Source: Marsupella aquatica (Eukaryota > Plantae > Marchantiophyta). Taken from it: 64,000 nt of DNA. A model generated the notes under the pieces. That model had not been told where the DNA came from, searched no databases, and saw only the letters and a list, made by a program, of their open reading frames with translations. The translations under genes and the position numbers were made by a program. The DNA lies in contig OZ316898.1 of assembly GCA_973895155.1 (NCBI GenBank), positions 9,473,079 through 9,537,078 on the forward strand, written 5' to 3'. Below are positions 26,892 through 62,169 of this stretch, in pieces; position 1 is the first letter of the stretch, and each line of letters begins with the position of its first letter.

Positions 26892-26893
26892 TT

Positions 26894-27534
26894 TGTTAGA
26901 TATTGCTCTTAGTCTTGTTGACTCATGAGCTAGCTACAGTTAGTCTAACTCGGGTTAGGACTTAGCTAATGTTAGCGGTAGTGCTATTGTGCACATAGCC
27001 AGGGCTGATGCCTCGGGGGGTTGACTATAAAAAATCTTAGGAACCACATGCGATCCAAAATAGGTATTTTGGATAGAACTTAACTAAATTTTAAAAAAGC
27101 GTAGGAGGCAAAAGAAGGTATTATAAACTTATGTTTATAGAATATTCTCTAATATATATCTTTTATAAAGTAAAATAGGTTATTAATATTGAAAATAGAG
27201 AATATTCTTGGAATATTTTCTTTATAAAATAGGTCTATTTATATTAGGCTAGGATCGCACGTGGTACCCCAAAATATACACTTAGTTAACCCCCCGAGGC
27301 TGATGCTAGACCCTGGTGGAACTTAGGCTCATTGTTACGGAGCTAGTTGAGAGATAAGGAGAGCTTGTGCTGTGGATGCTTGGTATGGCCGGTCGGCCTA
27401 GAGTGCAGTAAAGCTCTTGTGTATTCTCGTGGACGTAGTCTCATGTGGAGGTGAACCACGTATCTCTCTGTGTCGACTCTTGTGCGTTGGATGGTTCATG
27501 GGCTTGCTGTTATGAATGTCGTCTATGCTCAACA
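26894..27534 (+). repeat. Copia 3' LTR with internal MITE
   Basis: Direct repeat of 21794-22139 plus a 295-bp insertion. Confidence 0.95.
27012..27298. mobile_element. MITE (non-autonomous TIR element, ~290 bp) in the copia 3' LTR
   Basis: TIR CTCGGGGGGTTGACTA / TAGTTAACCCCCCGAG (15/16 match); flanking duplication GCTGATGC; sub-terminal inverted repeat ACCACATGCGATCC / GGATCGCACGTGGT; AT-rich core; absent from the 5' LTR. Confidence 0.9.
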
Positions 27535-30500
27535 AATATATCATATTCTTTTTATGTATACCCTTCTTTCTAAAAAATTTTTATATAGGTAATTATTTTA
27601 ATAATCATATATAGTATATCATTTTTTTTATGTACATATTTTTTTCTATGTGTATATGTTATGATAAATAGTAATCATGACAAAACGTATACATGCTTAT
27701 CATTTGACATAGATCATGGTCATGAGTTTTCCATTCACATGATGAACCATGAAGTTGTGTCTAGAGGTATCAACTCTAGCTTATAGTTGACACTTTATAA
27801 GTAAGATTGAGGGGAAGACTTCTCTTTCAGTGCAACCGAAGTCTAATAAAAAGTATTGACTCCAATGCTCATCTCACTTTGTCAATGAGAAGCCTTGCCC
27901 CAAACCTTGACACTCTTCATCCCAAATTGGATTGTGTAAAGTCAAAGTTAGTTTATACCTTAAAGAAAAAGGGTAAGTTGGTTTGGGGAGGAACACCTTA
28001 CTTGAATGAAGATTGCCCAAGTAGTTTTTTAGGCGCTCACCAACTCTAAACTACTGGGTTTTGGCAGGTTTGTTTTGCTTATTTGAAATACTTCCAACAT
28101 GTTCTAGAGAGTCTCAAACTTTGTCAGAGTGTAAATAGTTATAATTGTATTCTGAAAATCATTCTCTTTCTTGTCTACAATTCTTCCAGCCCATCACCTG
28201 CAAAAAAAATATAGGATTGCTTTTATTACGGACCCCCATTAGGGGTCATTTGCAAAATTCCTGGCTCCACAGCGCGCCACACCATCATGGCACGTTGCAA
28301 ACAGGAAGAGACTTGTTTTTGAATAAAATTAACTTCTGCATTCGTGTTTGTGGCAAGTTTGCTGTAAAAACTGGGACGCCATGCCGTAAAAACAAATGCA
28401 AAAAAACTGACATGCAAATCAAAAGACAAAAAGATTGAGGTAAAATTGCTCCCCAAAATGGTTTTATTTATATTTTGATTTTATTCAAAACATAAAATTT
28501 TCCCGGTAGCACTTTTCAATTTGACATTGTTGAGTCAAATCATAATGAAAACTCACGTATAATATGGCGTAAGAAAGATCTTGAAGAGACGGTCCCGATG
28601 AGCTCAACATTGTCATCATTCGGTAAAAATTGAGTAAGTAGTTTGAAAAATAAATTTTACCCTTGATTTCATAATCTCTACGTGAATAGAATTTTTGTTA
28701 TACAACCCCTGAAATGTTGACCCTTTCTATGAGAATGAACCTAAAATTGGCAAATTTTATTGAGTACTAAGGAGATTATGAATTTTAGAATTTCTTTAGC
28801 TTTTTAACATTGATAAATTTAGTTGAGTTATGAGGAGATTATAAATTTCCAATGTTCTTGACCTTTCCAATGAGTGTAACATTGGGAGATTTTATCAAAT
28901 ACTAAATGGTCATGAGTTTCTAAATTTCTCTAGCTTTTGATTAATTTTGAATTTCACAATTGGAGATTTGTTTCCATGAAATTTTTTGTCTTAAATGATT
29001 ATGCAAAGTTAATGATTTGATGACACCGATGACTTCTCTCTCTTCGTCTATCTGTGTGTAGGAATTGAAAGTGATTACTTCGATGCAACTTGAGTGCATC
29101 CAGCATCCCTTCGGTACCGTGGAGGAAACCGTCGAGCACCATTTTGCTGAAATGAGCAATTAAGCTACCCACACATTAAACATTAGTTCACATTGCAACT
29201 GGTTTTGCGATTGATGTTAATTATGGTTGCCTTGGTAACTTTGACAATTGTTTCAAGTGTCAAATATTGACTTGTCCATTTTTGAATTTTTTTTCTTTAG
29301 ATTTGGAGGTCCATCTAGGTTTCACTTTGTAGATAACTGCCTCTAAAATAACATGGGGGTCCACGGATTAATGGAGTTTCAAGGAAGACTCGTAGGTTTA
29401 TGTGAAAGAACATTATAAATTTTGAACAAATGTCATGGGTGATATGCATGGGACCCACTCAGAGTGAGGCCCACAAGGGCTGAAACCTTACTTAACCCTA
29501 GCACATAGCACATATGCCTACTGTAGTCCTGTGCTAATGGGAGTGGCCAGTGCCTTAGTTCAATCATTTCCAAATATCTCTCTACCAATCAAACCAGGAG
29601 CCTTTTGGTATCCACTTCCCTACCAAAATGGCTACCACAACTAAGTGTCGAATTGTCCTCCTGTCTGCAGGGCCCTTTGAGTCTAATCCTCCTGCTCTTG
29701 GATCCACCTTTTCACATGGTCACCAAACCCATCACCCAAAATTGGAAGTGCTCTGAATCTACTTCTTGAGACTAGATCTGGAAAAGTTTTTTTATCTACC
29801 ACACCCATCCGTGCAATTGACTTGTCAAACAGACTTCGGACAATGAAGACATGCTCTCCTGAGTTTCCAACATGATTTGGTAGGCTCATGCACATCCATA
29901 CAGACTTGGATAGCACACTCAGAAAAATTATAAACTTGCAGAGCACATCTGTCTTGGAAATGGACCCTCGTGAATTTGGAAATATATTGACACTTGGGCT
30001 CCTCACACTCGGGCTCATCAAACCTGCGAATGTTTGTGTATATCATATGTCATCAAGTGAAGTAGTAAACTTGCATAAACTATTCGGGTACTTTTCTTTC
30101 GATCTATCAAGTCTCCTCTCCTTTTTCTATTTTGAGAGAGTTCTGTCAGACGTATTGTTCATCGAGTCCAATGCCCGACTATCAACTTCAATTCTAATGT
30201 TATCACAACAGACCATGACATCTTTGTTGTGCATACATTGAGCACTCATATCTCAATTGTTTTTTGCCTTGAAAACCGAAAGCAGGCCCATCCTACAGAG
30301 GATAGACGTCCTGCTTTGGAGCATACATTTGCACTCAAATCTCAATTGAATCGCTTTGAAGGCTCAACCCGCTATCTACAACATCTTATACAAGGGCTAC
30401 TCTAATGTAGCCGAGCTCTGTCGCAGCTGCATTGATGGGACGATGATGGGGACGACGTTTGATGGGCACGCTTTTGTGCATTGGTTGATGATGCGAAGGT

Positions 30501-30666: not shown

Positions 30667-33241
30667 TTAAAGCCCTCTGGCATTTAGAAATGCCACTACC
30701 TGCCGCATGCTGGGCCTCATTCTACTATCTTCGTGCAGGCACATCTTTGACAGTTCCACCAGAGAACCCAACTCTTCAGGTTCATATTCGCCGTTCAGCC
30801 TTTCGTCCACCAGCTCGTGATAGAGGGATGGACTGGTCACATAGGGAGCCGCCCAGGAGCTTAGTGAAGCCGCGTTGTAGATGGCTTGATGCCCAGAGAT
30901 GAGCTCGAGTAACACTACTCCATAGCTGTACACATCACTCTTGGAAGAGAATACTCCAGAGAGGAAGTACTGTGGATCCAAATAGCCAATTGAGCCTTTC
31001 ACTATGGTCTCGATCGACTGGAAGGCTGTGGCATCTGCAGGAGCAGATTTGGAGAGCCCGAAGTCAGCAAGCTTAGCCGAATCCGTGGCTGTTAGCAGGA
31101 TATTCTGTGACTTCACATCTCTGTGTACAATTGGAGGGTCTGCATCGTGGTGAAGGTATTCAAGACCATAGGCGACATCGGATGCAATTTTGGTCCGCTT
31201 GTGCCACGGGATGACATTCGCACATAACTGACGCATCTCCATGGAATCCATTATATTATTGCTTGGAGGGATCGGTATTGCAGGCTCGTGGAGTCGATCG
31301 TAAAGGCTCCCATTTGGGAGATACTCAAACACCAGCATGTGGGCCCCTGCATGCGCAGGCCACCTGTCAATCGACGCTACCTTGATTGAACTAAATTTAC
31401 TCCGAGACGTCTACAGATCATAATACTAGGAATTTGAAAAGCTTTCAAGTCGCTCGAACGTAATATCGACTGCGCGCCTCTAGTAGAGCAATAGCTAATG
31501 AAAGGCTCTGGACGAACCTCGGTGAATGCAATATCCTATCAAGTTGACGAGATTGCGGTGGTGAACTCGCAATAACACCACGATTTCATCCGAAGCAAGA
31601 ACTTTGGAAGATGTTAGCCCCTTCCGTTTTTCCACTTTGACAGCTCCAGCTGTGCCATTTGGAAAATCAGCTTTGTACACGGTGCCGAATGCCCCCTCGC
31701 CCAGCACAGCACTAAAACTTTTGGTGGCGGCGGTCAGTTCCTTGACGGAAAATAATCTTGCAGTGTCTGTCTCGTAGAGATTGGAGTAATCCTCCTCAGG
31801 CGGAAAGAACCTCTTCCTACCGAAAACAATACCCACTATGCTAACGATGAGAAGAGCAAGTCCAGCGACAGACCCAACAACTACCTGAAACGTTGTCGTT
31901 TCCCAAATAGAAGCCTTCTTAAGACGTAACAGTGTAACGTTGTCTATCATAGGCCCACAGCTGCTATTGAAATTAAGGCTCGTGAAGGAAATTGTGGTGA
32001 CGTTAGCAGAAGCTGTGAACGTTATGGAGTGAGGCTGCCATTGAGATGGAGCAACAATGGAGCTACTCGACGTCCTCACATCTATGCTGAAGTTCTGCTG
32101 GAAGCCATACCCATCAATCTGTGCCGCTTGGAGTGTGCTGTTGGAAGTCGGGTTAGTTATCCGCACCTGCAATTGAGCCTTCTGGTACGATGTATTGCAT
32201 AATGGCCGGTTGCTTACTTCCAACTTTGGAGGGAAACCAGTGAAGTAGAAAGAAAGGAGGTCCTCGCTTCCTACCTGGGTTCTAATTGTTTGACTCACCT
32301 GACCCCTGAAATCTCCATCTGCATATGTATTCAAATGAATGCTCCATAATCCATGAGCTGGTTCAATCAATCCGGCTTTCACGTAATCAATGGGGCCATA
32401 ATCAATGACCCAACCGCAAAGTGAGAAGTAGGTGGGACGTGTCTGACGACTGACGGTATTCGTTCCTAGCGATATCCTCTCCAGCTTGAATAGTGCTGCT
32501 TTCAAAATCTCCGTTGACGATTTCATCTAGAGACGAATTTGTGATCTCAAGCAACCCTTGGATTGTGAATCTGTTAGTAGACCTATCAATCAAGTTATTT
32601 GCGGACATAAATATGAAATTAGCGGAGAACGTGAACCCTGGAGTTGAGCTGCTGGGGAGGGACGAATTTAGCGTCATATACTGAGAAGTCACATAGTTAG
32701 ACGGGTTGGTGTCCTTGTCAGGGATTTCTCCCCCCAGAAATAGGTCTTCCCCTTGTGGCCCCGGCAATGCACTAATGACGCGACTGCCGTTCCTCCTCCA
32801 CTGTTGACTAACTGCAGAAGAATTGCAGGGGCGCAATTTCAGTAGACTCAGAGAACTCCAAGCCACAGCATCGATACACAGGATTGGGGTAAGAACTCCG
32901 AAGACGATGGTTTGTGTGGGTTCGTGGTAAGTCCACATTTCGTTCGGCGAAGAGCCATCACACCTATATGTGGCAATCGTGCGATTCCAGAAATGGCCCT
33001 TTGCTTGATCTGCAGGAGTTGGAGTATAGCCATTTGGATCGTATGTCAATGCGTTGACGCAATACTGACAATAAGGCTCCACACCGCTTGGATATGTGCC
33101 ACTGGCGATCCATCCGAAGTCGTAATCAGCCTGGTTTGAGCTGTAGTTCCAGCCCGCCTGGACCGGCAAAGCTACGAAGGGAATACACATCCAGCTGATA
33201 GTCGCCCAAAGCCACAACATGTTAAGCATTTGATGCGCCAT
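30667..33241 (-). pseudogene. Receptor-like kinase: signal peptide, ricin-B-type lectin, DUF642-like domain, TM, Ser/Thr kinase; one apparent frameshift (pseudogene or sequencing error)
   Basis: ATG at 33241 with hydrophobic signal; YRCDGSSPNEMW and LRPCNSSAVSQQW; NGDFE...GWVIDYGPIDYV...CGPMIDNV; TM VVVGSVAGLALLIVSIVGIVF; GEGAFGTVY, HRDVKSQN, DFGLS, GSIGYLDP; phase-1 intron 31517-31347; frame change at ~32420-32490. Confidence 0.85.
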
Positions 33242-34329
33242 ATCGCCAGTATATAAATCGAGTCAAGGTGGTCGTTGGACACGCACGAACTAGACCTGTC
33301 CGCCGGTCGTATGGCCCGACCATTAAGTCAAGTATCTACGGGCACAAGGAGGAGGATCTCCCTTAGCATGAGAAATCCGGAAAGGCACGTCACTTGAATT
33401 GAATGCTACCATATACGGTATGGTCGGAATTGAAATCACTGACCGGGAATGCTGATCAGAAATCTGATTGTAATAGATGGGTTCGCTATTTGCTAGACGA
33501 TTAAAGCCAATTGGGTTGGAGCGAAACCTAGCCAACTTTTGGCAGACTCCTTATATAGGAGAACCATATCGTCTAAATTGAATTTCACGTGTTAATGTAC
33601 TGTCATCTGACTGGGCCAATGCTACACGGTCTACACTCAGTGCCAATTCAAACTCAAAACTAGTTTCACCTGTGAAAGCTACACTGCAGCACACCGCCCT
33701 GGGAGATAACAACTGCATGCTCGAATGGAAAGCTATTAATGATCGAGGAGGTTGAAAGAGTTCCAGTCCACCTGATCACGGAGACATTCAACAAAGAACG
33801 ATTTCGAGCTGATGAATTCCTTCCAATCAAACCCAAACATCCTCGGCATAATTATGGTCATTTCTCGAGGGGAACGGTGGGAGCAAAGTTTGGAGGTAGT
33901 CGCGTCCAGTGGAGTGGCCCACCGATCGCCATTAGGATAAATCTGATGGCCAGTGTGCGTTGATTATACGTTTTCCATTCAATCAATCGTATGTCGTTCA
34001 CATGTTTGAGCTCAATATACAAATTCCCAAATCCCAATGTGGCCTACGTCTACAGGACGAAGACCTGGAACTTGAACAGCAATAATTCCGTATAGCTCTG
34101 TCCGACTTTTTCAGCGAAAAGTTAGATCGACGAATAGGTCATAAGGCCCAGTAGCTCGTCCAAATTGAGAAAGATGCAAACAACTCCCGAAATCCGAGTA
34201 AAAGTGTGCATCATGATCGAGAACGGTACATGTGATTGACACTGGCAAGCTCATCAACTTAATGTTCTCGTTGAAGGATAGATTGTTGCTTTGCCTTTGG
34301 GATCTTGTCTCCCTGTTTGGCATTTTTGC

Positions 34330-45107: not shown

Positions 45108-48100
45108 ACAGGAATTACCTAAGGTCGACTTTCTTTCGTTCTCGTTTGGTTCCAGTGGCGGACTTGAGAAAAGGATGCGGCTGGATTCTGCTCGATAAAT
45201 AAAATTGTGCGTTGCTGCATTCTAGCTACGAATACTCTAGTTGGTTTGTCCTTTATAATTATATCTAGCAAATTTGATCTTCGTCTTTCGTCGGGCTGAG
45301 AAGCTAATAACCGAATACTTCAATGCGAGCTTCAGTGTCAGTAAACGGAATTAAGCTCGAATGGAAGGTTCCCTTCTCCTGTGAAGGATCGATCATGCCA
45401 ATATAGTTGTAGTACAGTCATCTGGAAGCTGGTCTACTCCGATTTAGTTGGAAAGGGTAGTCAGTAAGATATATTGGGGATGCCGAGAATTCAGTTACCA
45501 GCTAGCACAGGGCCAAGCTAGCTAGGACAAGGAAAGAGAGGACGCCAAGAAAATACTGACTGGTATCATTTGGTCACTGGTAGCTTCACAAGTATGTCGA
45601 TTTGTAATTTTAAGTTTTTTTTTCAAAGTAATAAAAAAAGGTTTTGATTGAAATGGTTTGCTGGAACACTTGAGAGCACTGAGCTGTGCACATTCTTTCA
45701 TTTGTCTGGCGACGATCCGTCGCTTTAGTGTGGGACTCACAGCTATTTTCGCTACACATGGACCGGACAAATGTGTACCCTAGATTCCAATTCTCGGGTC
45801 CATTTCTAGGTTACTAGCTCGCTGGTGGACATCCGTAGATTGTGGTAGGACATTTCTTTCAACGCATCGATCAGATCTTCAATTATCTGTGAAGTTAGCT
45901 TGCTATTCGACTCCGTTGAATGAGCCCCCCTGGTGTTATTTCACAGTCTTTACTTTTGATGTATATGAATATCACACGCAAAGAACAAAAAGGGAGACAA
46001 GATTGGAGGCCAAGATCCCAAAGCCAGAAGATCCCCAACTCTCGCATGTTGACGCCATCTCCCGTTAGTACTACTGCGATCGATCATGTTGCCACCTCGT
46101 ACGAACATGTCATGAGACCACAGAACCACGTACGATTTGGTTGTAGCTGAATTACGCTAGATTGTACACGAAGACACGACCCACATATCCATGGGGTAGG
46201 GTGGTCCTGAAACGAACAACTGAAACTGAAGGATTTACTCGGTCGTAATCCAAAAACCATAGCCACATATATTCCACATTTGGAGGTCTGTTCACTTCAT
46301 TAAGCTGCATGTGATTTTCAGAGGTGCCTATTTAAACCGCAAATACGGGGGCAAGGGGCTCTGGGTCACCCTGAGTCCTCATACCCAGGTGCATCCACCC
46401 TTAGCTATCAGATGCACCCTTAGCTATAAGATAAGATCTATGGTTCAAATGGTAGTTCTGGTTGAGATTTACTTCTGTGAAAAAAAGCAGGAAAAATGGT
46501 TGCCTGGATATTTTGCGAGAAAAAACAAAAAAACAAAAAGGGCAATCTGATTGGCTAAATTTGAAATTTGAATTTCGGGGGGAATGGTAGATCTGAGCCG
46601 TCTGTATTTCTTGTCTCCAAAAATCTAGTCAATCCATCATAGTGGACAATCTATGGTTCAAAAGAAAGATCTCAAAGAGATTTATGGATGAGTTTTGTGG
46701 GTTTTGTAAATGGGTTAATATTTTTCAAATGAAAAATAAAACAAATTCAAATCCTTTTTCAGATGAAAAATAAAACAAATCCAAGCCCTCCTAGCAGTCC
46801 ATGTAATGCAGGTTTCTTGCCCTATACCTTCCACCCCCTTCAAACCCTTCAACCACTCCAGATTTACTAAACAATATTGAACTTAGTTGAGATTTATGTG
46901 TGCCTGTGCCTCCACTCCGGTCAAAGCTAACACTCAGTCTGGGGCCAGTTGATGACCACAATACCAGAGTCAAGCACAGGCTGGCAGCGGGCATCACACA
47001 CAGTCTATTCAATGCTAATCCACAGTGTCTTATTAGCCCCGAGATTACCTTTTGTTCTTAATATTAATTTTCCCTATTTTTATAATTGTTCATAGTTACC
47101 CATGCCTGTTTACTTTTTCTGTCTTTTTGAGTTACAAAACATCTATAGTAATATTCTCCAATACTCCCGCCAATACTGTAAGATAAATATAATCCAATAT
47201 TGCAGCCAATACAGGTAAGGTAAATATCATCTTAATGTTTTTCTAACAAAAAAGTGATGTAGTAGAGGTGGCCTCCTATATGAGAAGTCATAGTTAAACT
47301 CATTAAGGATCACTAGTTAGTTATAGTAGGTGTGTGAGTACCTAACTAAAAAGATAAGTGCCAAGAAGCTTGGAACTTGACTTTGGTAACATGTTTCACC
47401 CCCCAAGTCTCATAAATTCCTTGTCGTGGTGGTCTCAATCTCTGCGCAGCCTGCCAACACAAATTAAGGCAGGGAGTGTTGTGTGGGGAATGTATAGCTG
47501 AGTGTTGTCTTTTGAAGAGGACGGTGATTATTTGGGAACTAAGGGGGGCTTTACAAGACCGCGGGGGCCGTTCAGTCCCTCCTCTTCCAAAGCAAAGCCG
47601 GGGGCCACTTAATGAACTAAAATTAGTAAACCGGGGCAAACACACTACCAGGCTGCAGCGAACGGCGCCCAGCCTCATGTAAAGTGAACAACGCCCACTT
47701 TGAGAGATGGGACACAGAAAAGACAGAAACAAGGGCCAGCTGTCTGATAACTCCCAAATTGACGGGGAGGAAATATGTGATTGCGCGGGAGAAGATCGTC
47801 AAGCTCAGTCTTTCTTTCAATTAATGGTGGATCTTCAAGCGTTGGAGAGAAGAGAGCTTGATGAGCAACAGGTCCTTCTGTTTATGGACCCATACAGAGA
47901 GATCTACTGTGGCCAAAAACTAGAAAAATCAAACTTCAGCTGTGAAATTTTGTTCAACTGGGAAGACGCTGATACAGACGCACATAGCAACATTGAATCA
48001 TGGAACCTAGAGAAATTTCGTCAAGTGAGAGCCATGATTTGTACAAAGAAATTGAGGCAGAAGAAACGTCCGACGAAGAAGACCAATGCACTGTTGAATA

Positions 48101-49939
48101 TGCTCGTGAACAGGTCAGAAGCTTTTCTTGTTCCTGTCCCTGCCAAGTTTGATTGTGGAATTTCGTTTTTGCATTTTCAGATTGCAAAATTGTCCTCTTA
48201 TCAATTATTTGATTACACGATGCAGCCTGACAGGAGGAAACAAAAATTCTGGTAATAATTTGCCTCAATTTGGTGTTGCAAGTCATCGTGGCTAAAGTCA
48301 TACAATCACAGCAAGCTGCTTTGGTTACAGCAACAAACACAATGCATCTATTTAATTGCCTCATTGGGGACCGACGGCTTTTGCGATTGCATCCTAGATC
48401 CATTTGGAGGTTGGACCGTGAATCTCCATTTGTGGATAGAACATTGTTGGCTTCTCATACTGAAAAAGAGTTCACAAGAAGGTTACGTATCAAGCCTTCC
48501 ACATTTTTTTACCTCTGTTCTCTAGTTGCCCCAGACATGCAGAAGTCAAAAAAAGGTGGAGCTATTCCATTGGAAAAGAGGGTTGCTTTATCATTGAACA
48601 GACTAGGTACAGGTAACTACTTGCTTGGTTGTGCTGACCTGTTTGGAATGAGCGAAAGCTTGGCCTGTATTGTTGTGAGACAATTCTGTCAAGCCGTTTT
48701 GAAATACATTCGTCCACTTGTGGTTCCGAAATGGACTTCAAAATCTCTGAAAAATTTAGCAGCCCAGTTTGAAGCTAAGCATGGGTTGCCTTTTATTATG
48801 GGAGCCATAGATGGCTCTCATATTCCCATCATTGCCCCTGAGGGGGATCCGGCACCTTTCTATAACAGAAAGGGATTTTATTCTGTTCTCTTGCAAGGCA
48901 TTGTGGACACGGAAACAACATTTTGGGATTGGGACTTTGGATGGGCGGGTTCTCTACATGACTACACCTTATCTGTAAACTCAGTGATGGGAAGGAAAAC
49001 TATTAGGGGAGATTTCCGTCCATATAAACTCATAGGTGATGCTGCATATCCCATCCGAACTTGTATGTATATTCCTTTTAAAGGAACAAAAGAACAACTT
49101 GAGCCTTTCAAAACACATTGGAATTTCATCCAGAGTTCTACCAGAATGTGTGTAGAACGGGCATTTGGAATTTTGAAAGGCAGGTGGCGGATTCTCTTGA
49201 GACGCATAGAAATGAAGATTGATCATGTTGCTGACGTGGTCGGAGCATGTATATGTCTGCATAACTTATGTATTATGCACAAGGATTTCGGAGATGAGCA
49301 GCTCGTAGCAGATGCAAAATTGTGGCTGAAGGAGCAATGTGTCACACCATTCTGAGTAGTGTAGTAGTATATCGTGCTATTAGAGTATGTACGTTTGGTA
49401 TGAGTGCTATTGGAGCCGATAAGGTTCTGTCAGGTTTGTGTGAGAGGGTACTTCTCACTTGTGAGACATTGAAAGGTCATCTTTCAATGTTGAGCCTTGG
49501 AGAGAGAGGAGCTTGAGTGTGGCTATGGTGGCTGTGAGCTCCGCTTGTGTAACGAGGATTCCTTGAGTAGTGCAAGGTGCATTGGCTTGACATACGTGTG
49601 TGATCGGATCGGTGCGGGATCGATGGGGTATTGTTGACCGAGATCGTTGTGCCGATTGTATGGAGATTACATTGAAAGATCACATTCGAAATCTGTTGTA
49701 CGGACTGTGCGGACAGAAGTTCGATTGATTGAGTTGTCGATGGTTCGTGGTAGCTCGGATCGTGTGTTGTTATCGAACAGATCGTTGGTATCTTGACCTG
49801 TATCGTTGTTGTCCGATCGGCTTGCTTCCCGATCGATGTACAGATCTGTGATTGGTGACAGGTTTTGAGTTGGAGGTCGATTGATGATTCGTGGAGGAAA
49901 GCGAATGTTGAGTAGATGTTGGACAGTGGAAGTCGATCC

Positions 49940-50480
49940 GTGAGGCTTCAGATCCGATTGCCGGCTACTGTGAGGCTTCAGATCTGATTGTCGGCTACTA
50001 TGGGGCTTCAGATCTGATTGCCGGCTATTGTTGGACGATGTTGGCAAGGCGCAGGTGAAGCGACGGCTCTTTTCCTGAAGGAACGGAGCTGCCAATGCCC
50101 CGTGCGATGGTATCATCATTTCAGTGAAAGAAACGAGGGTCAAAGGTGTTGAATCAAGCTGCTGCCAGTTCTGTGGAAGGGCTGCATTTTTCATGAAGGA
50201 AATCGACAGTTTTCGGGAGCTTTTCATGAAGGAAGTAGTCATTTTTGGGGTCAGGTGTGAGGCGCACGAGGTCACCCATCCCGAAAGTGCTCGCGCGAGG
50301 TGACACGTGAGGTCACCCATCCCGAAAGTGCTCCCAACCGTGAGCGCGAAGTCACCCATCGCGAGCGCAGGCAGGCGCGAGGTCGAGGTCACCCATCCCG
50401 GGGCTATTCCGGGCCGTGAGCGCGAGGGGAGGCACAAGGTCGAGCGCGAGGAGGTCACCCATCCCGGGGCTATTCCCAGC
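49940..50480. repeat. Short tandem motifs in the gypsy 5' non-coding region
   Basis: 30-bp unit GTGAGGCTTCAGATC(C/T)GATTG(C/T)CGGCTACT x3 at 49940-50030; GTCACCCATC(C)G-type motif x5 at ~50270-50470. Confidence 0.85.
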
Positions 50481-53400
50481 CGTGAGCGTTTAACTGGCAA
50501 GTTCTCATCCCACCTTGTGTACACACAAGCTTTGACAACTTGTTGTTTAGATTCAAGCGCCAGGGGGCTTTATACACTTCCCGGTTTGTTTAGAGGCCTA
50601 TTCTAGGCCAAATCAGAGGCTGTTTGAGGGTTTTTGATACTTCTGAGTCCATCTAGACTCACAGATTGAACCAATTTTGCCTTGGTTCTCATCTACAACA
50701 TTGGAGTGCCATTGTGAAGCCTATTATGAAGGCTCTTCCTTGAACCTTATGCACATTGTCATATTGATTTGCATTTGCTTTTGTGTGGAGAGTTGAGTGG
50801 TATCCATTCTTGTTTCTGGATCCTCTTCACACATGTTTCCTGTTTATGCGCCATGTTAGTTTCGTGTGGGCGCTTGATTCCATAGGAGTGATCCGGGTTT
50901 GCAACTGGACATTCTAGTGTGCTGTGTATTTCTCTTTTGGTGATGTTGGAGTGATGCCCAACACACCATGGTGAGTGCTTGTGGTGCTGACAGGGATAGA
51001 TTGCCCTTAGGGTTAGCACATAGATTAGGTTAGGGTTGGTCACCACGGATTCTTCTGGTGCTGCTGGATTACCCGATGGACGACGGACCGGTTTCACTCG
51101 GAGTGGGGCACAGTTTCGGCCAGCGGCATTGGTAGCAGTCAGCAGTGCAGCTTCAGACAGTGATTCTGATGAGGACTCAGTGACCAGTTCTCCTCATCAT
51201 CAGGTGGTTGCACCTTTGTTGTGGGATATGGACGAGATGTACGGGGCTACAAAGGGCCCACGACGATACTCTGGTGCAGTTGGCACAATTGATCTGGATG
51301 ACTTCATCCAGGAGTTTGATACGTGGTGCGATATGCAGACATTGCGTAATGTCACGTTGTTTACCCCTTTCATGGCATGGAAAGGATTATTCCAGCATTT
51401 GGAGGGGCCACCAATGAATGACTACCATGAGTTTCGGAAGGCTCATTTGGTTGAGATTGAGGCATGGAGGCAGCATTGGTCGCCTAATTACGTGTCCATC
51501 ACCTATGGCACTAGTGCGGCTGCCCAACCAATTGCCATAGCTGTTGCTTTTTCTAGCAGCACTAGCCAGAGTGGCACACCATCCACCAGCAGCACTCCAG
51601 CAGCATCCACCACTACTCCTGCCGGTGTGATTGTGACAGGAACTGGAGTTGCGCCAGCATTTAATCTTGTGGTGGAATTCTTTGAGGTACTGAAGCAGAA
51701 CTATCAGGGTGTGAGAACTGATAAGTTGAAGGGTCTTCAGGAGTTCCAACGCAAGACTGGAGAGAGCCTACGTGAGGCATACACACGTATGCGTAGATTG
51801 ATCACTGTCACCAAGGGAGTGACAGAGGCTCAGGCAGTCCAATTTTGGTATGCAATTCTGGACAGAGAATTGCGACGCAGAGTGAGAGATGTCACTCTGC
51901 TTAGGGATGCAGATCCCACATTAGCAGTTGTTTTCACCCTTTCTGAGCGCATTGAGCTCAATATGGTGAATGAGAAGGTGGTGACTTTCGGATTTGCCAA
52001 GGAAGCACCAAAGGCTGCATCTACATCCACACCACAGCCTACTGCACGGAAGAGCCAGAGGGAGAAGCCTACTGCACGAGAGTCTACCAGCCAGAGACCT
52101 GTGCCTTCTTATGCTGGACAGCAGTCAGGATGTTGGACCTGTGGTGGGGATCATGCACAGAGATATTGTCCAGATCATAGAGGATCAGAGGGAGCATCAG
52201 CGCCTGATCAGCGACAGTGTGATCACTGTGGAGCTCCTGGACACACCAAGGATAGGTGTTTCTCACTCCACCCTGAGTTACGGAGAGGAGGATCCCATAC
52301 ACATGATCAGGGAAGAGGAGGAGGAGGTAGAGGTGGTGGACGTGGTGGTGGCATGCCACATGCAAGGAGACAGGGAGGTGACGCTGCCCCTGCTGTAACC
52401 ATAGATCCAAAGGATGCTAAGATTGCTCAATTGGAGCAACAACTAGCTGCCATGGCTAGTTCCCAGGTGAGACCTAATTCTGGTGATGGGGCATCTACAT
52501 CCTATGGACCTTCCACATCCCATGGTCCTTCCACATCTTATGGAGCTGATGGAGACCTTGCCACCATGGGATTCATGTGTGGCACTGCACATATTGATGC
52601 ATCAGCAGCTTTGACACGTGGGGCAGCCAAAGCTCTTGAGCCCCGAGGAGCAGTAGTGGAGTTAGATCCACAAAGGGGGGATGCACGTCGGCAGACAAAG
52701 CTTCCTCAGTCTTTTACATTGTCAGAGACAGTTCAGACTGCCTCTATGAACCCGGTTCGGACAAACCCTGATGTGGGTAAGTTGGCAGAATCAGGTAGTG
52801 ATGCAGCAAGGATGATAGGTACCTTGTTGGGGGCGGCTACTGCCATAGTACGCACCCCATTATTTTCAGCGACAGACATGCTGAACTTGGGAGTTGGTCC
52901 TGCAGAAGTGTTCAGATTGGCAGCTACACTCTGTGAGGACACTCCAGTGGTTGCTTCCCATGCAGAAGCAACTTGTAGTGTTGATGCAGTGAAGACCATG
53001 CCACCTACTGCTACTAGTGAGACATGGCATGCAGCAGCAGCGAGGTTGGTGGATTTACCAGCACGCCCTGCATTTGAGAGGACTAGGTTTAAACCTAGTG
53101 TTGTGTCATTGGATAATCGGAGTGGTATCTTCCGATTAGTTGGGCCTTCTGGAGCAGTATACCAGCCAGAGAGAGTGTTACTGGATACTGGTGCTCAGCC
53201 CTTGATGTTGGGGAAGTCTGCCATACGTGGATTGGGATTGCGTCCAGAGGATTTGGAGGATTGTCCCTTTCCCATTCAGACTTCATTGGGGGGACCTACA
53301 CCTACACAGCATATCACCAGGAGACCACTTGATTTGAGGATTCAGGAAGGTCATACCACAGATAGCTCACAGATACAGGCGCGAGCTATTCTGACTAAGG

Positions 53401-53891
53401 CAGAGTCATATGATGTGTTGGTGGGATGTACAGTGCTCTACCCCATGGGATTTATTCTTGATTTTTGGGAGGAATCAGTGTCATATAGACCTGATTGGCA
53501 GTCAGGAGATGCTCGATTGAGCAAATTGCCAGTGAGATTTAGTGGACCTGTGGGAGGCTCTAAATCCACACCATTGTCTTTGGCAGCATTTAGTGGTGTA
53601 ATTGCTGGACCTGATGATTTGATTGAGGGTAATGCGCATGCAGCCGATGTTCCACCATTGGAGGAGTCTCATGAGGAGCACATCATGCGAGGGTTACCTG
53701 TTGGCAGTGTTGTGCCACCAGTGTGGGGCACTGCACAAGCCTTGCCACAGGCAGCAGCACGATTGGTACATGATGCATAGCGTCATGCTTTTACACCACA
53801 GTCAGGAGTAGAGCAATCTCTTGCAGATGGACCTGTGACTCTTTCACCATTGGATACCACTCCTATTGCTTGGCAATATCCACCGGAGGGT

Positions 53892-54830
53892 ATTTGTTTG
53901 TTGGATCTTTTTGGTGGGATTAGCACTGGATTGGCTGCTGTTCTTCAGGCAGGAATTCCTGTGCGTCGTTATTTATATGTGGAGATAGACGAGACAGCAC
54001 AGAGGGTCTCATTGCGACATGTGGCTATGTTGGTGGATAGATATCCACAGTTGCTATCAGTGGATGCTGTTCGTGGTTATCAGCATGCACTACCTACTGA
54101 TATTTCATTGCTGGGGGCGGATCATCTGCATCGTGTTGGCCCCATTGATTTGGTGATTGCTGGTTGGCCATGTCAGGGCCAATCTAGAGCTGGCGTTGGG
54201 CATGGACTTCATGATCCACGCTCTGCATTGTTTTGGGAGATGTTACGGGTGCTGCGTCACCTCCAGCTACATCAGACACAGTCTCCAACATACATTTTGG
54301 AGAATGTGCCATTGTTAGGTGATGATCGTAGTCGGATTGTTGCCAGTGTTCACCAGGTGAGGTCTTGGATTGGACCTGCTGTGTTATTGGATGCTGCACG
54401 TGTGGGTTCTCGTGCACATCATCCACGCTTATGGTGGACTAATTTGATCCCATGTGAGGTGCTGAAGCGCGCATTTGACAGCATTCCACGCTCACCAGCC
54501 TTAGTGGTGGATGATATTTTGGATCCAGGGCGTCGTGCACAGGGTGTGACCCAACTTGATAGACCTCCATTGGCAATGGTCAATGCAGTTGGGTGCCCAC
54601 GTTGTGCATTACCCACTCTTGTAAGCCACTCTGCTTCATATGCATTCAGAGCAGGTGGCCCTGGACTTGTATGGGACACAGCTCTCCAGCAGTTAGTGGA
54701 GCCTACTGCTGATGAGAGAGAGCGTGCTATGGGATTTTTGACTGGCACCACTGCAGTTGCCTCTGTGTCAGAGGGTTTGCGGCGCTAGGTTCTTGGTCAA
54801 GCAATGGATTTGAATTGTTTGACTTGGATT
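53892..54830 (+). other. DNMT3-like C5 cytosine DNA methyltransferase domain within the gypsy polyprotein
   Basis: Motif I LDLFGGIS, II YVEID, IV IDLVIAGWPCQ (Cys at 54171), V RSALFWE, VI ILENV, VIII AH(H)PRLWWTNL, IX ERERAMGF, X RR*VLGQAMD, in canonical order. Confidence 0.93.
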
Positions 54831-57800
54831 ATCAGCTTGGGAGTAGCTGAACAGTTGCGGATGCGCTCTGCCGGAATTACTGATTGTCCCTTGGTGAGCT
54901 TGCGGTCCACTGAGACAATATTGACCACAGCTGGGGGCGAGCAAACAGTCCATGGACCTATGACAGGATTGGCAGCTGGACAGATTGTTGAGCAGGAAGA
55001 GACTGCTCAATCTACTGCTAAATAGCAATCATCGGCTATCTCTTCTACCCTACAAAGAGATATTAGAGATTTGGTGGAGAGTTGGGAACCACAGCTTGGC
55101 CCTAAGTTAACAGGGGAGGAGAGACGTCGCATGCATCGATTCCTGAAGAGTTATTGGAATTGTTTTGCATTCAGCATGAAGGATTTGGGGACATTGAAGG
55201 GCCCTGGTATTCAGATTGAATTGGCTAGTGATGCGCCAATCTTTCGTAGACCATACCGTTATAGTGACATGGAGAGAGCTCTAATTCAAAGCAGAACTCA
55301 AGATTTGTTGGAGGCTGGATTGGTGGAGATTTCATATGGGGAGTATGCATCTGCCACAGTGATGCCAGCCAAGAAGGATGTGCATGGCAATTACACAGAT
55401 AGGCGCATGTGTGGTGATTACAAACCTATTAATTGCCAGACAAAATCTGATCGATATGCCATGCCCACACCTGAGGAGATCTTTGATGCTGTGGGGCATG
55501 CAAAGGTTTTCAGTTCATTGGATCTGAGGGCAGGATACCATCAGCTTCCAATTAGGCATGCTGACAGGTCCAAGACAGTATTCTGGGGGATTGATTCTTA
55601 TGGCAAAGATCGTTTGTATCAATGGTTATTCTTACCATTTGGGTTGAAGAATACACCAGCTGAGTTCCAGAGAGTCATGGATCGAATCCTTGCAGGTTTG
55701 GATTTTGTCAGATGTTATATTGATGATATTTTGGTCTATTCTTCTACTGTGGAAGAACATCAGCAGCACTTGCAGACTGTGTTGGAGAGATTGAGAGCAC
55801 ATGGGTTGAAGCTCCATCCTAGCAAGTGTAAGTTCTTCCAAGACCAGATTGAGTATTTGGGCCACACCATATACCCAGGGGGATTGGGTGTACAGCATAC
55901 TAAAGTGGAGGCCATTACACAGATTCCTTGTCCTACTGATGTGAGTAGAGTTCGTGCATTCTTGGGATTGGCGAGCTACTACAGGAGGTATGTTAAAGGA
56001 TTTAGCCAGCTTGCTAAACCTTTGACCATACTCACTAAGTTGGATCAGGAATGGATTTGGGGTGATGACCAGGAGCATGCCTTTCAGGAGTTGAAGCAAA
56101 GGTTGGCATCATCCCCTATTTTGAGAAGACCCATTTCAGGCAGACCATTTCAACTACACACTGATTGGAGTGGAGTAGGACTTGGAGCAGTGCTGACTCA
56201 GAAGGATGATGAGGGGAATGAGTTTGTTGTGGCTTATGGCAGTAGATCAAACAATTCAGCAGAGGCTAAGTATAGCTCTTATGAGGGAGAGTGTTTGGCA
56301 GCAGTGTGGGCTGTTGCACACTTTAGTTGCTACTTGTTTGGTAACCCCTTCACCTTGATCACTGATCATCAGCTTCTTAAGTGGTTAATGGAGTCTGACA
56401 AGCTTACAGGGAAGCTTGCACGATGGGCATTGTTGTTACAGGAGTATGATTTCCAGGTGGTGCATAGGCCTGGAAAAGTGAACTTGGATGCAGATGGATT
56501 AAGCCGCAATCCATGTACCAGTCAGCAGGATGAGACTGGAGCCAGATGGCATGATGAGTCAGATAGGGAGATGGTGCCAGGATGGCATGCATCTGCCTTT
56601 CTTTGTTGGGTGCCAGCATACAGTGGATCTGTGGACTCTACCTCATTGGATGGAGTGGATGATGAGTCTTCAGATGTGGATGTTGGTGAAGTAACTTCTG
56701 GACAGCAAGGTATTCACAATGATGTGAGAGTGTTGGAATATCTGCGCAATAGTTCTATTGTTGGCAGTGTTGATGCCAAGGAACGTGACAGGGTTCTACA
56801 GAGAGCCAAGAGGTTTCGATGGGAGGGAAACCATCTTTTGAGAGTACTGCATGATGGTAGGATGTTGGTGGTACCAAAACCATCGCGACATGCGCACGAG
56901 GAGTTGGGTCACTTTGGTGTGAAGCGCACTTACAGCTTGCTGCAGACGCAGTATTGGTGGCGTGGTATGCACACTCATGTCCAGCAGTTGATAGCTAAGT
57001 GTGTGGTATGTGACAGAGTGAGAGCATCATTTAATGCTCCCACTCCCCAGTTGCACCCATTACCGATCATGGGTTTGGGATATCGTTGGAGTTTGGATTT
57101 TGCTGGTCCATTACCTCTTACCCAACATCATAATCGGTATGTTTTGGTCATGGTGGAGCACTTCTCCAAGTGGATTGAGCTAGTGGCGTTGCCAGATAAA
57201 GCCAGTGGAGGAGTTGCTGCTACATTTTTGGATCGTGTACTCAATCATTTTGGAGCACCAGCTGAGGTGTTGACTGATCAGGGAACTGAGTTCCGTGGAG
57301 AGTTTGAGAGTTTGTGTGAACAAGCTCTGATTGATCATCGCACTACCTCTCGTGATCATCCTAAGGCAGATGGATTAGCTGAGAGAGTTGTGCAAACTGT
57401 GAAGAGAGGATTGTGTAAGTATGACTTGCAGGTTGGTCATCTGGGAGATTGGGATCTCCAGCTACCTTGGTTAGCTATGGGCTACCGTTTCAGTCGGCAA
57501 GCATCACTTGCATCCTTCTCACCCTACTTTTTGCTCTATGGTAGAGAGCCAGATTTGCCAGCAGCTATTCGTCGTCATGCTGCACCAGTTGTGAACTTGG
57601 ATGATCCTAATGTTTGGGTCAAGGTGTGTTCAGAGAGAGCACGGGTATTTCAGAGAGTGATGCCCATGGCTTTTGACAACCTTGCCATTGCCCAACATCG
57701 TGATACTTTGAGGTATGCCACTATTCGTGGAGGAGGTTACCGTGCAAGCATTCGACGATTTCATCCTGGTGATTATGTTTATTTGCAGCAGACAGCACCC

Positions 57801-57992
57801 ACGATACTTGATGTGACCGCAGGCCGGACAATCTTACGTGTGCGTGAAGTGTTGCCTTCTGGTGTCCTGATGTTGGAGGGACGCGATGGTATGGTTTGGA
57901 AGGATCATGTGCGCAACTGTGCACCATGTCACCTTCCCAACATTGATGGTACAGTAGATCCAAGCTTGGCACATGTTCGTGCTGGCTTGAAA

Positions 57993-58127
57993 TGTATGTT
58001 GTGTGGATCTGCTCAGGGAGCAGCTACTATGTTGATTTGTGATAAGTGTTCTAGAGGATGGCACATGTCATGTTTGACACCACCATTGCAGGTGATTCCT
58101 AGTGGATCATGGTTGTGTCCTCAGTGT
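57993..58127 (+). other. PHD finger (C4HC3) at the integrase C-terminus
   Basis: CMLCGSAQGAATMLICDKCSRGWHMSCLTPPLQVIPSGSWLCPQC. Confidence 0.95.
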
Positions 58128-59605
58128 CGGTGAAGCCGACTAGTTATCATTTGTGTTCTCTTGGCAGATATGGATTGCAGGTAGGTGATCGATGGGGCTC
58201 ACTTGCACCCGACCTCCTGATCTTCACACCTAAAAAGGTGTATATCAACCTTGTAGAACTCATGGCTAGCTAGAGTTAGGGGACCTTACTCCCAGCTAGG
58301 GGGGCGATTGTGGGTTTTGGACATGTGTGGACATGAGTTCCACTTGTATTTCATTCTCTTGTATTTGTGATGTGGCAGTGTGACTATGTCTGGATGTATG
58401 TGACAAGCGATGTATGTTGTGTAGCGATATGTATGCGCACGACAAATGCCTTGCAAGTTTTGGGGATTTAAGACAAGCTGGGACTATGAAAATGTATGAT
58501 TATGCACAGGTTGAGGTGAATCGAGCTACAATTGATATGGAAGAGTTCATACGTACAGCTGGATTACCAGACGACAATGACAATGCTGTGATTGAACTTG
58601 CCAATGAAAACTCTGTTCAAGCTTTGAATAGAGGGGTCACAATGCATGTGGAGCTGGCCAAGACATTGTTTCACCGACACTTGCGTGAACAGGTTGAATT
58701 ACCCGAAGGTGTCTTTGATGATGACACAGACTCTCCGAGCGATGCTGAAGAATGATTCTAGTAATTTTTAAAATTCTGTTAGGTCAATTCCCTACGTCCA
58801 TTGAAGCCATTGTTGTTAGGTCTAGCATTCTGTGAACTGGAAATTTTCGTCCACATAAATGCTGACTTTTTCTATTACTCAATCTGTGCAATCGTCTTCT
58901 TTCAGAAATTGTGCAAGGAACTCAAATCTCAGTCGAAATGCACAGCATGAATCACTGAAAGCTGAAATTGAAAAGGTCCTGAAAGTCTCCCATTCTCAAA
59001 GTCAAAATTGAGAAGACAAAATGCAGTCCTGATGAGCTCCAATTCTTAAAGTTGAAATTGACAAAAGCAATCTATTCTCAAAGTCGAAGTTGGAATTGAA
59101 ATCAATTTCTGGGCTATGGATTGATTTTGCCTATGCTTTGCTATTGCAATTTAAGTAGACAATTTTGCTTGAATGAATTTTGCTGATAGTTATACATGTG
59201 GAAAGCAAAACGCAGTTCTGAAAATCACCAGTTCAGCAAGTCGAAATTGACAGGGAAAAATCCATTCAAACATGAAATTGAAGTTCATATACAGTTCAGA
59301 ACAGACATGAGTAAATTCTCACCCGTTCTGTACACATTGTGCAATTCTAGAACAAAAAAGAATGATTAAACTACCAAAAAGTGAGAGCTTCCAGGAGTCG
59401 ACCTTTTTTATATTGAATGCCCAATTTCAAGGAACTCACTTGTCCGTAGAATGAAACCTATTAAGCAATTCGGGAGGATAGTACAACTCAGTGGGCCGTT
59501 TATAGTATTTAAAATATTCTAGGGGGACACCATCATAGCTCACTTCTATAACAGAAGGTTGAGGGACAAAGCATCGCCTAGGCGCCCACTCATCTGCAAC
59601 CACAT

Positions 59606-60995
59606 TTACAGTTTGTCAATGCGCCTTGAAATTTCGGATTTGAGCTCTTTCAGAACACCAGTGGTCTCACGAATGTCTTGTGCCATGCTAGAGGTGTTGC
59701 TCACCATCTCACTCATGTACATACTATACGTATCTGAATTGCTTTTTTTGGATGATTTTGTGGACTGATGGGTAGTGTTAGCAGGATTACTACCTTGATC
59801 TGAACCAGATCCAACCCCACCTTCGGCAGACCCTTGCGCTTCCCTTGGCTCATTCAAGTCAAGGGGACATGGATTGGGAGTCCCACTAGCATCTCCGTGA
59901 CACAATTTTTGTACATTGGCCCGGTTGTTGAAGCCTTGATCAATTTCGTCAAAAAATTTATAGGTGATCTTTCGTCCCTCTCCAGATATGCTGAGGATAC
60001 GTTTGTCAGTGCAATACCGTCTATAAATGGTTTTCCATTTCTTCCTGATTGCCTCAGCTGACTTGTTGAATCCTTCACAAGCAGCAATCATTTTCTCTTG
60101 TAGTTTCTCCCACATGTGCACACCTGTGTAATCGAGAGAAATCAAGTTATAAAAAATAACAAGTGTGAATACTTGAGAATACTTGAGAATGCACGCTCAC
60201 GGACAAGTTATAAAAAAATACAAGTGAGAATAATTGAGAATGCACGTTCACGGACCTATACATGTGATTTTGACAAGAAAATAGAAATTTGAGGATCTGA
60301 ACCTCACCTTGTTTCTTGGCATTCGTTGAGAACTCCTCATCCATTTCTGAGCGAAATGATATTAGGTGGCTGACTTCTGCATCTGTCCATCTACTCACTG
60401 AGTTTCCATCTTCCCCATCGCCTTCTTCATCACTCAACTCGACAACCTTCTGAGCCTTCTTCGGTTTCTTTGTTGGGGTGGCCTTGGCAGCCCTCTTTTT
60501 CTTTGTGCCCTCACCAGGTATTTTGCCTCCAGTTTCTGTCCTAACAAGCAGCTTCGTGACTTGAGGAGGCTCCTCACTACTGGTAGATGCAAATGGACCT
60601 GGTGCAGGGCAAGAAAAGAACTGATTACGATGGTCTGGAACAAAAGCTTGTCCTGCAGTTCCATGAAATGAACGAAAGCTACTTGGTGGGGGTTCATTGA
60701 GGCAGCGTTGGAATTCCTCATCGGACATGACCAACGGAGGTTGGGACGAAAGTGCATTGAATGAATCTCCCCCCTGATAGCTAGAAATTGGTTGTGAATC
60801 TTGAACAAAATTGGAGTCGACTTCCATTCGTTGCCTCTGTAGCCTTTCCTGCCATTGCTGAAAAAATGATTGGTTCATCGTGACTGATCCCGTGACTGAT
60901 TGTATAAACTCTATGTAAGGAGAGTGAGATGTGCAATGTGCGCTACTGCTGCACTCTGATGTTGCCGAAGAACATATAGATCTTGTTCTGGACAT
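59606..60995 (-). CDS. Harbinger Myb/SANT (trihelix-like) DNA-binding protein
   Basis: RWTDAEVSHLISFRSEMDEEF...KQ|GVHMWEKL...KSAEAIRKKWKTIYRRY; phase-1 intron 60307-60124; start codon (60995 or ~60878) and 3' end uncertain. Confidence 0.88.
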
Positions 60996-61440
60996 TGGAT
61001 CGATGTTTTTTGAAATGTTGAATCAAACATTTGAAGTTGGCTCGCAAATTGGGCGCCCTCCTGAATCGCCTGGATAGTCGCTTCTGTGGGGTCAGAGTTA
61101 ATGCAAAGTCTGAATATAGCAATGGACCAAACGGATGAAAGAAAAAACCACCCGAGGAGGTGGTCTAAAACTTTGCCCGAATGGCCGTGACACGTCTGCA
61201 AAAACTGGGCCCTACACGGGCCCCACTAATGTCCATGTAGATCGGGATCCTCTGACGGGAAACGTCCCCCCGCGGTCTTGTAAAGTCAAGTGTGGCCAGT
61301 TCTCACGAATGCACGGCTAGGATCACATCTGGGAGACTGGAAAAAAATTGGAACGGCCCCCGCGGTCTTGTAAAGCCCCCCTAAGGAAGGAAGAAACCAA
61401 AGAGTGGACAGGCCAATATGTGGAAAACAGAGGACAAAAA

Positions 61441-61547: not shown

Positions 61548-62169
61548 TTACACAAAGCTAGTAAGAACATGTCCAGTGGAACATAACTAAGTTAGATATT
61601 GTTTAGTAAATCTGGAGAGAACTGAAATGAATTTTTTGGAGATTCAACATAAGGAAAGTATCAAGAAGGGAGACACAAACCTTTGAAGAAGGTCAATGCT
61701 GAAATCTACGTATGGGAGTGTTGTTGTTTGAAAGAACAGATCAAAGAAAAATAGAAATTGGAACTAAGCTACTAAACACCCTAAAAAATAGCTACTAAAC
61801 ATTCTAAAAAATAAGAAAAAATAAACATTGGAAAGTTTTTGACCAATGGACATATAAACAACAGTGCAAAAATCTGAATGTCCTGGTTTACCCTCGTGAA
61901 TATAACCTTGTCATTCATATAATGAAGAAATGTTCCATAATTTTTTTAAAGAAAATTATATTATTATAGGATGCTTTAGCTTACATAAATAGCTTAAACT
62001 ATGGACTTCAAATGATTAAAGGGGTTAGAAAAATTGCTAAATTCAAACCAATACAAAGTGAAAGCTTGGATTAGATCAGATGATTGTACTAAAAAATACA
62101 TGGCCAGCTCTTCTAATAAGCAGAAGATGTCCCGCCATATAGCAGTCTCATATACTTTTGTGGATATGG

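Follow-up and report, generated by a model that had tools for sequence, protein, structure and literature searches.

A Dnmt3-carrying Ty3/Gypsy element of Marsupella aquatica with a predicted integration site inside a probably circularly permuted long terminal repeat

A stretch of 64,000 nucleotides from the liverwort Marsupella aquatica (contig OZ316898.1 of assembly GCA_973895155.1, positions 9,473,079 to 9,537,078; hereafter the window) contains a Ty3/Gypsy retrotransposon at 49340-58444. This element is the short form of a family that carries a Dnmt3-like methyltransferase and a PHD finger. The long terminal repeat (LTR) of the family is probably circularly permuted, and its integrase would act on a palindrome within the LTR, not on the ends of the complementary DNA (cDNA). 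Its left and right ends are two dissimilar segments, repeats A and B, which would be the right-hand and left-hand parts of the permuted LTR (Table 1). The arrangement is a real, family-wide feature, and the predicted mechanism, which is well supported by sequence, would represent a variant of Ty3/Gypsy replication. The element appears to resemble self-priming Ty3/Gypsy elements in reverse transcription, and a circle-junction integrator in insertion.

The limits of the element were derived from its target site duplication (TSD), its end letters and the joints of an empty site, the joints being read from assembled contigs (Logan) of five public sequencing runs (X1-X5). TGTC on the left and GACA on the right lie directly inside the two AATG copies. 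In contigs of X1, X3 and X4, position 49335 is joined to 58445 with four letters fitting either side, which shows that both the limits and the TSD are real. This joint has the same depth as the flanks, which are near-identical to those of the window in the three runs, and it contains AATG once, with no excision footprint. It suggests the same locus without the insertion, and the insertion site appears polymorphic. The original prediction of a 4-bp TSD with TGTC...GACA ends is thereby upheld, as is its statement that removal of the insertion restores the reading frame of the host transposase, since the codon phases on the two sides agree. The interrupted gene is the DDE_Tnp_4 transposase (+) of a complete PIF/Harbinger-type transposon that also contains a Myb/SANT gene on the opposite strand (-). 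A repeat search, BLAST of the whole window against itself and permissive BLAST of both terminal segments detected neither a direct repeat nor a long inverted repeat between the ends, and in the repeat search no terminal inverted repeat (TIR) extended past 4 bp, both as had been predicted. Across the element, sequence depth exceeds that of the flanks by a factor of tens to hundreds, which makes the family a multi-copy one; contig depth was taken only as a sign of this, never as a copy number.

Joints within sister copies delimit the two repeats. The commonest one listed inside the element connects 49668, at the end of A, to 58307, at the start of B, and is present in all five runs (depths of 7,297 in X1, 1,239 in X3, 1,720 in X4, 8.75 in X5 and 8.5 in X2, the last run also having variants of the joint at depths of 1,110 and 845), with deletion variants that start from 49611 and 49612. 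In X2, position 58444 is linked back to 49340 via GT at a depth of 255, giving the order B-GT-A, and 20 contigs with different flanks lie behind 58444 (agreement 0.39). The A|B and B|A joints together assign 49340-49668 to A and 58307-58444 to B. B begins with ATTGTGGG, and many differing loose ends follow it; its start, previously put at 58309, is shifted to 58307 by the run joints. Likewise, a 5' LTR end formerly proposed at ~50992 (TGCTGACA) is discarded, because A stops at 49668 and the reverse complement of the left end is matched, allowing one edit, at five places in the 64-kb window. The polypurine tract (PPT) directly abuts B and the primer-binding site (PBS) directly abuts A, the latter being of the self-priming type and missed earlier, when no TGG-type PBS was found. 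The position of the end of A relative to the PBS is the same in relatives of the element. As the left segment found no DNA match in the 80 related loci considered below, A was compared by position and not by sequence; it is predicted to contain the promoter, R and U5. The B of the window is 65-70% like the B of relatives from moss metagenomes. The GACAACTGTC at 45095 lacks any A or B context and was rejected.

The same arrangement recurs in these relatives, which are the best 80 of 524 loci from a scan of metagenome contigs (viral contigs were also scanned for the family and gave no loci). By self-comparison, eight distinct loci hold both ends. Four of them have the long form A1-coding-B1-A2-B2 (L019, with TSD AAGG; L056, with ATCA; L042 and L063, with three of four TSD letters each), and the other four the short form A-coding-B (L002, with TACA; L078, with TACT; L080, with ACAA; L016, with three of four letters). 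A 4-bp TSD is found in all eight, exact in five and with one mismatch in three, and two identical terminal LTRs occur neither in them nor in the window copy. In the long forms, B1 and B2 are direct repeats of 115-180 bp lying ~300-350 bp apart. Distinct 3' ends were also counted in the two clades with a recognisable B, merging duplicates (L051 and L052 being one locus) and leaving out loci that were too short or had no B: 22 are short and 14 continue into A, 12 of the latter finishing in a whole B2, one (L017) being cut by the contig end and one (L051) entering an inverted internal piece. The A-coding-B short form is ordinary for the lineage, and the alternative view of the window copy as a one-off does not survive the recurrence of this form with its TSD.

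Some contigs display further joints or contexts. In L051 (3985-4642, the same locus as L052), A2 stops at the PBS boundary and is fused to the inverted internal piece, as if a free cDNA end might have been joined into the element's own body, while in L015 (1805-1929) the B end (GACA) is fused to an inverted segment of A, which would reflect either autointegration or a nested insertion. The contigs of L069 and L081 overlap circularly, a possible assembly collapse, and were not counted as circles. Contigs of the lineage also appear in prokaryote genome bins (L081-L087, in cyanobacterial, Mollicutes, Halorubrum and other metagenome-assembled genomes), probably through binning contamination; L085-L089 contributed nothing to the comparisons.

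Where B1 meets A2, the two repeats are connected via GACA-NN-TGTC, with a spacer of exactly 2 nt in 19 of the 19 junctions listed, five of which were chosen for having the motif. The spacer reads GC in nine junctions, AC in five, AT in three and GT in two, the last three being what methylcytosine decay of GC would be expected to produce. Downstream of the PPT, GACAGCTGTC is found again without change in families whose integrases are only 48-70% identical. The palindrome or its transition variants match 26 times in the 81,290 bp within 1.5 kb downstream of an integrase match and four times in 628,590 bp elsewhere, counting all 80 loci with their redundancy, and two of the 26 are not at a B end. 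At inserted ends, both half-sites are kept and the 2-nt spacer is absent, matching the 2-nt overhang that integrase 3' processing leaves.

These features are consistent with a model in which the attachment (att) site lies inside the LTR. Transcription would start inside A, and the 5' end of the RNA would pair with the PBS after A and self-prime the minus strand as in Tf1. The minus strand would begin at 49668, and the plus strand, primed by the PPT, at 58307. The resulting linear cDNA would be [B-NN-A]-coding-[B-NN-A], its ends being the PPT and PBS boundaries and not att sites, with the att-like palindrome placed at the B|A joint, where the sequence has it. A staggered cut after CA on each strand would yield two CA-3' ends with 2-nt overhangs, to be inserted with a 4-bp TSD. 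If an end-joined 2-LTR circle were opened at one palindrome, the product would be A-coding-B-NN-A-B, the form whose transcripts could be terminally redundant; opening a 1-LTR circle, or cutting a linear cDNA at each of its two palindromes, would instead give A-coding-B, as in this copy. Without terminal redundancy, A-coding-B is likely a dead end.

Sequence relations among the repeats fit this model. The A2|B2 joint of long forms is the PBS boundary fused to the PPT boundary, that is, the predicted cDNA ends, like the junction of a 2-LTR circle; judged by eye in 12 relatives, it falls within ~2 nt of the predicted fusion in eight and has larger indels in four. Considering that the A|B joint varies by indels and the length of the B|A spacer is constant, end-joining would suit the former and templated inheritance the latter. 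The B1 of a clade 2 element and its own B2 match each other best in eight of 14 cases (about one being expected by chance) and A1 best matches its own A2 in three of four, while in L082 B1 equals B2 over 106 bp; these matches point to both copies of a repeat deriving from one template per cycle.

The complement between the predicted primer and the PBS fits Tf1-like self-priming of the element. Only five of 20,000 shuffles of A reach an 11-nt primer/PBS complement, and complements of 11-17 nt, unrelated in sequence and with the same geometry, are found in five of the eight distinct relatives with A1. In L016, L056, L063 and L080, the primer segment begins ~30 nt after TATAAA, and a TATA is located inside A in clades 1 and 2. 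Folding of 11 sequences trimmed to the stretch that begins with the primer and finishes with the PBS, which biases the fold towards this pair, gave primer:PBS pairing probabilities of 0.62-0.99. Weaker support comes from distant loci, where pairs are present in five of six (also in L081 and L083), as they derive from a 1.2-kb search in which 11-nt pairs arise by chance too (second pairs in L060 and L069). A second PBS-like copy precedes the self-primer in the window (49466-49490) and in clade 1 A repeats, also in L008, and the two form a local hairpin across the predicted transcription start.

Several observations weigh against this interpretation. Regarding priming, the exact primer match is absent in L002, L042 and L078, and after the palindrome in L084; the A of the window has no evident TATA box; the primer:PBS pairing probability of the window falls to 0.33, from 0.81, once the fold is extended by 40 bases (0.51-0.94 in the other folded sequences); and the minimum free energy fold of 49479-49690 does not include the primer:PBS pair. 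Regarding the joints, B-NN-A of the family to which the window element belongs was found in one run of five (X2, 255), versus A|B at up to 7,297, in both cases among the joints listed, so that its low frequency is not a count. No palindrome is seen in the sequence examined of the distant L068, L070, L071 and L079, and short forms in metagenomes could partly reflect assembler collapse of young B-A-B loops. The own-partner test gave 0 of 10 in clade 1 (0.922 within and 0.910 between elements). In addition, if a 2-LTR circle could be opened at one palindrome as well as at the other, a mirror product A-B-A-coding-B would be expected; it occurs in none of the eight distinct loci with a 5' end, which the model leaves unexplained. 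Finally, the circle, the cDNA ends, the transcript start and the integrase cut are all deduced from sequence.

As for the origin of this particular copy, direct insertion in the short form is slightly favoured, given that short ends form the majority despite the small size of B and that the site appears polymorphic. Its main rival, which has a substantial though lesser chance of being correct, keeps the same mechanism and has the element inserted as A-coding-B-A-B, with later recombination between B1 and B2, or single-strand annealing, removing A2 and one B while keeping the TSD, in an analogue of solo-LTR formation. Such a loss could use the closely spaced B1 and B2 repeats of the long forms, its product would be identical to the sequence observed, and the absence of the mirror form expected from free circle opening speaks for it. 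Set against it are the 22 short 3' ends versus 14 with B-NN-A among distinct loci, despite the short B, and the empty site in three runs, which suggests a recent insertion that was already short; neither of the two is decisive.

Replication in the manner of Ngaro/PAT, with an RNA spanning A1 to B2 that templates the whole split-repeat layout, and with an integrase acting on the true ends or on a B|A junction rebuilt from B1-A2, is improbable. Ngaro/PAT use a circular intermediate, and elements of the DIRS order have no DDE integrase and usually no TSD. The B|A junction as predicted integration substrate would be a further likeness to Ngaro/PAT, which differ in using a tyrosine recombinase, while the present element has a DDE integrase (rve in the Pfam scan), a 4-bp TSD, a PPT and a Ty3-type reverse transcriptase (RT); no tyrosine recombinase family was detected in 14 of its 17 open reading frames (ORFs) of at least 80 aa that were scanned, the remaining three being of 84-92 aa. 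The A-coding-B-A-B layout is that of split-repeat DIRS-order elements such as Ngaro/PAT, according to the figure legend on KnitGypsy-Dnmt3 (PMC5890265), and the B1/B2 test in clade 1 did not discriminate. On the contrary, a PBS that follows A1 without a gap, a PPT that stops precisely at B1, the coincidence of an indel-prone A2|B2 joint with these same boundaries beside a constant B|A spacer, the TATA inside A in clades 1 and 2, and the private variants common to B1 and B2 of one element in clade 2 all speak against it.

Cut-and-paste movement like that of Ginger, with the integrase acting as a DNA transposase on TGTC/GACA ends, is very unlikely. Ginger DNA transposons have TGT ends and a 4-bp TSD, and a short copy does carry two att half-sites; they also have long TIRs and no RT, differing from the present element, which has no TIR beyond 4 bp, keeps RT, RNase H, the PPT and the primer site, has A|B joints that point to the ends of reverse transcription, and leaves a single AATG and no footprint in the empty-site joint. 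Hence, from the original suggestion of a family that either lacks identical LTRs or moves in a Ginger-like way, the first part is retained in outline, given A-coding-B with TSD in four of eight loci, and the second is not, given RT, RNase H, PPT and self-primer. The least credible origins are two others put forward earlier, a one-off chimera between two families and complementary deletions, after insertion, in a pair of ordinary LTRs, as sister copies in all five runs have A joined to B (and in one run in the order B-GT-A), the short form with TSD recurs in four of the eight two-ended loci, and deletions would not be expected to respect a PPT that abuts B and a PBS that abuts A.

Table 1. Features of the element and its insertion site (window positions; LTR parts, primer and primer-binding site are predictions).
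Feature	Position	Strand	Basis
PIF/Harbinger-type DNA transposon, host of the insertion	47543..61381	.	~35-bp TIRs, TAA TSD
TSD, left copy AATG	49336..49339	+	Sequence; empty-site joint with 4 letters fitting both sides
Repeat A, 329 bp, putative right-hand part of permuted LTR, starts with att half-site TGTC	49340..49668	+	Joints 49668->58307
Predicted self-primer (transcript 5' end), ATCTTTCAATGT	49479..49490	+	Exact complement of 49669-49680
Predicted Tf1-type PBS, ACATTGAAAGAT, directly after A	49669..49680	+	12 nt complementary to 49479-49490
Leader with short tandem repeats (30-bp and ~38-bp units)	49681..51023	+	Low depth in runs
gag-like region, zinc-knuckle-like motifs, weak aspartyl protease match	51024..53780	+	Stop 53778-53780
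Dnmt3-like C5 cytosine methyltransferase domain	53781..54788	+	PF00145, E 5.5e-11; in-frame stop 54786-54788
RT, RNase H, H2C2 zinc finger, DDE integrase core, C-terminal PHD finger	55026..58133	+	Third in-frame stop just upstream, 55023-55025
PPT, AGGGGGGCG	58298..58306	+	Sequence; at same position in relatives
Repeat B, 138 bp, putative left-hand part of permuted LTR, ends in att half-site GACA	58307..58444	+	Joints to 58307
TSD, right copy AATG	58445..58448	+	Sequence

The coding content is that of a Ty3/Gypsy element, in agreement with the TG...CA ends, the 4-bp TSD and the PPT. A single reading frame, 51024-58133, carries in-frame stops at 53778, 54786 and 55023, and with these three stops and no terminal redundancy this copy is likely inactive. 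The Pfam scan shows the order protease, RT, RNase H, integrase, with a Ty3-type RT; the aspartyl protease match (PF13650, E 0.0077) is below the cutoff, and no chromodomain was matched, a PHD finger being in its C-terminal place. The best match in the Protein Data Bank (PDB) for the RT-containing region is Ty3 Gag-Pol (E 1.4e-93). The Dnmt3-like domain is intronless and lies within the Pol ORF in a common frame with RT; its closest solved structures are DNMT3A/3C/3B (E 2.6e-11), with DNMT3A/3B/3C making up the top 29 of 31 PDB matches. Among two-ended loci, seven of eight have the methyltransferase between protease and RT, the exception being the internally deleted L016. This placement is that of the window and its closer relatives; the domain is found between RNase H and integrase in the distant L053, L060, L072 and L079, and L069 has no such match there. 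The homologues with a named source are from Marchantia, Calypogeia, Riccia and Sphagnum; integrase-PHD relatives from Volvox are more distant, and no Klebsormidium proteins are among the homologue matches listed. In the integrase core (~57277-57384), the spacing from the second Asp to the Glu of the DDE motif is, by eye, 34 residues instead of the usual 35, and several homologues are alike in this. Upstream of the frame, the leader is poorly shared among subfamilies. A stem-loop followed by ACACACCATGG (50944-50982), just upstream of gag, is 74% shared with positions 3858-3896 of L078, from a distant clade, and would be a possible packaging or translation signal; in this copy, its ATG does not share the frame of the long ORF.

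Among described elements, the nearest is KnitGypsy-Dnmt3 of Klebsormidium nitens (de Mendoza et al. 2018), presented in the legend of Fig. 4 as having Gypsy domains with DIRS-type repeats (PMC5890265). The two are alike in the Dnmt3-like domain inside a Gypsy Pol, and the A-coding-B-A-B structure given there equals the long form of the relatives described here (PMC5890265). The window copy itself is A-coding-B, relatives include that layout, and the family of this copy shows both joints, with B|A in one run of five. The portions consulted of that text give no mechanism and mention neither a palindrome, a self-primer, a short form nor a PHD finger, and they treat the Dnmt3 acquisition as specific to the K. 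nitens lineage, in contrast to the four bryophyte genera with homologues (PMC5890265). In a literature search, the family was found named in that paper and in one 2026 preprint; as far as their available parts go, bioRxiv 10.64898/2026.05.21.726589 and PMC12344493 cite Gypsy-DNMT3 without a mechanism. Neither an internal att nor a permuted LTR was found described for Gypsy elements in the search, which covered few subscription papers and Repbase reports, and a search on split repeats and circle junctions returned papers on the DIRS order and on retroviral junction cleavage (for HIV-1, PMC1905944 and PMC4372172), none of them on an att inside an LTR.

With regard to priming, sections of the literature describe Tf1 and Tj1 as having a PBS directly after the 5' repeat that is complementary to a segment at the transcript 5' end, with no tRNA primer (PMC4600332), and self-priming has been predicted for the plant Tcn1 clade (PMC6317226). 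The present PBS, complementary to the predicted 5' end of the element's own RNA, is alike (PMC4600332, PMC6317226); as far as those sections tell, these elements differ in having two whole terminal LTRs, and Tcn1 a chromodomain, while the element here has split repeats, a PHD finger and a methyltransferase. With regard to insertion, foamy-virus integrase is reported, in the part of the source consulted, to cleave the palindromic junction of 2-LTR circles, a likeness to the DDE integrase predicted here to generate processed ends by cutting an internal palindrome of a circle (PMC1180852). In the virus, the end-to-end junction itself forms the palindrome, and normal LTRs are retained in the provirus (PMC1180852); here, the palindrome would be templated inside the LTR, and the end-to-end junction would land inside the inserted element. 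A further parallel is offered by bacterial copy-out-paste-in transposition. In that of the IS3/IS30/IS21 type, a DDE enzyme opens abutted ends with a 2-3 bp spacer on a circle and no RNA step is involved, which sets it apart from the element here.

The window contains other features. Beyond the Harbinger transposon, a further inverted-repeat pair (46856-46888 and 61585-61617) suggests another nested DNA element. At ~21760-27610 there is a Copia remnant with partial paired LTRs (88-92%), a TGGTATCAGAG PBS, and pieces of gag, GAG-pre-integrase, rve and SH3, with no RT among its ORFs of at least 150 aa. Host genes encode an OCRE-domain protein (5693-7039), a SpoU rRNA methylase (20054-21646) and a receptor-like kinase (30667-33262).

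Retrovirology has long asked whether LTR circles can serve as true precursors for integration, and has mostly treated them as by-products. On balance we lean, with some reserve, to the view that the att site has shifted to mid-LTR in a clade of DDE-integrase retrotransposons of the green lineage, in which case the opened end-joined 2-LTR circle would be the only self-renewing product, circles would be obligatory, and LTR-less A-coding-B elements and solo A-B units would be direct by-products of that cut, all these forms being invisible to LTR-finding software. In the genome record, the circle junction seems to be preserved within the inserted element, and the palindrome provides a 10-bp substrate that can be tested with purified integrase. 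A multi-copy, methyltransferase-carrying bryophyte family is likely to have been missed or mis-dated by tools that need two LTRs. A permuted LTR would explain the DIRS-like layout of KnitGypsy-Dnmt3 and extend its lineage to bryophytes. What the window provides is a short form with its TSD, the empty site, and joints that sequencing runs place at the predicted ends of the cDNA.

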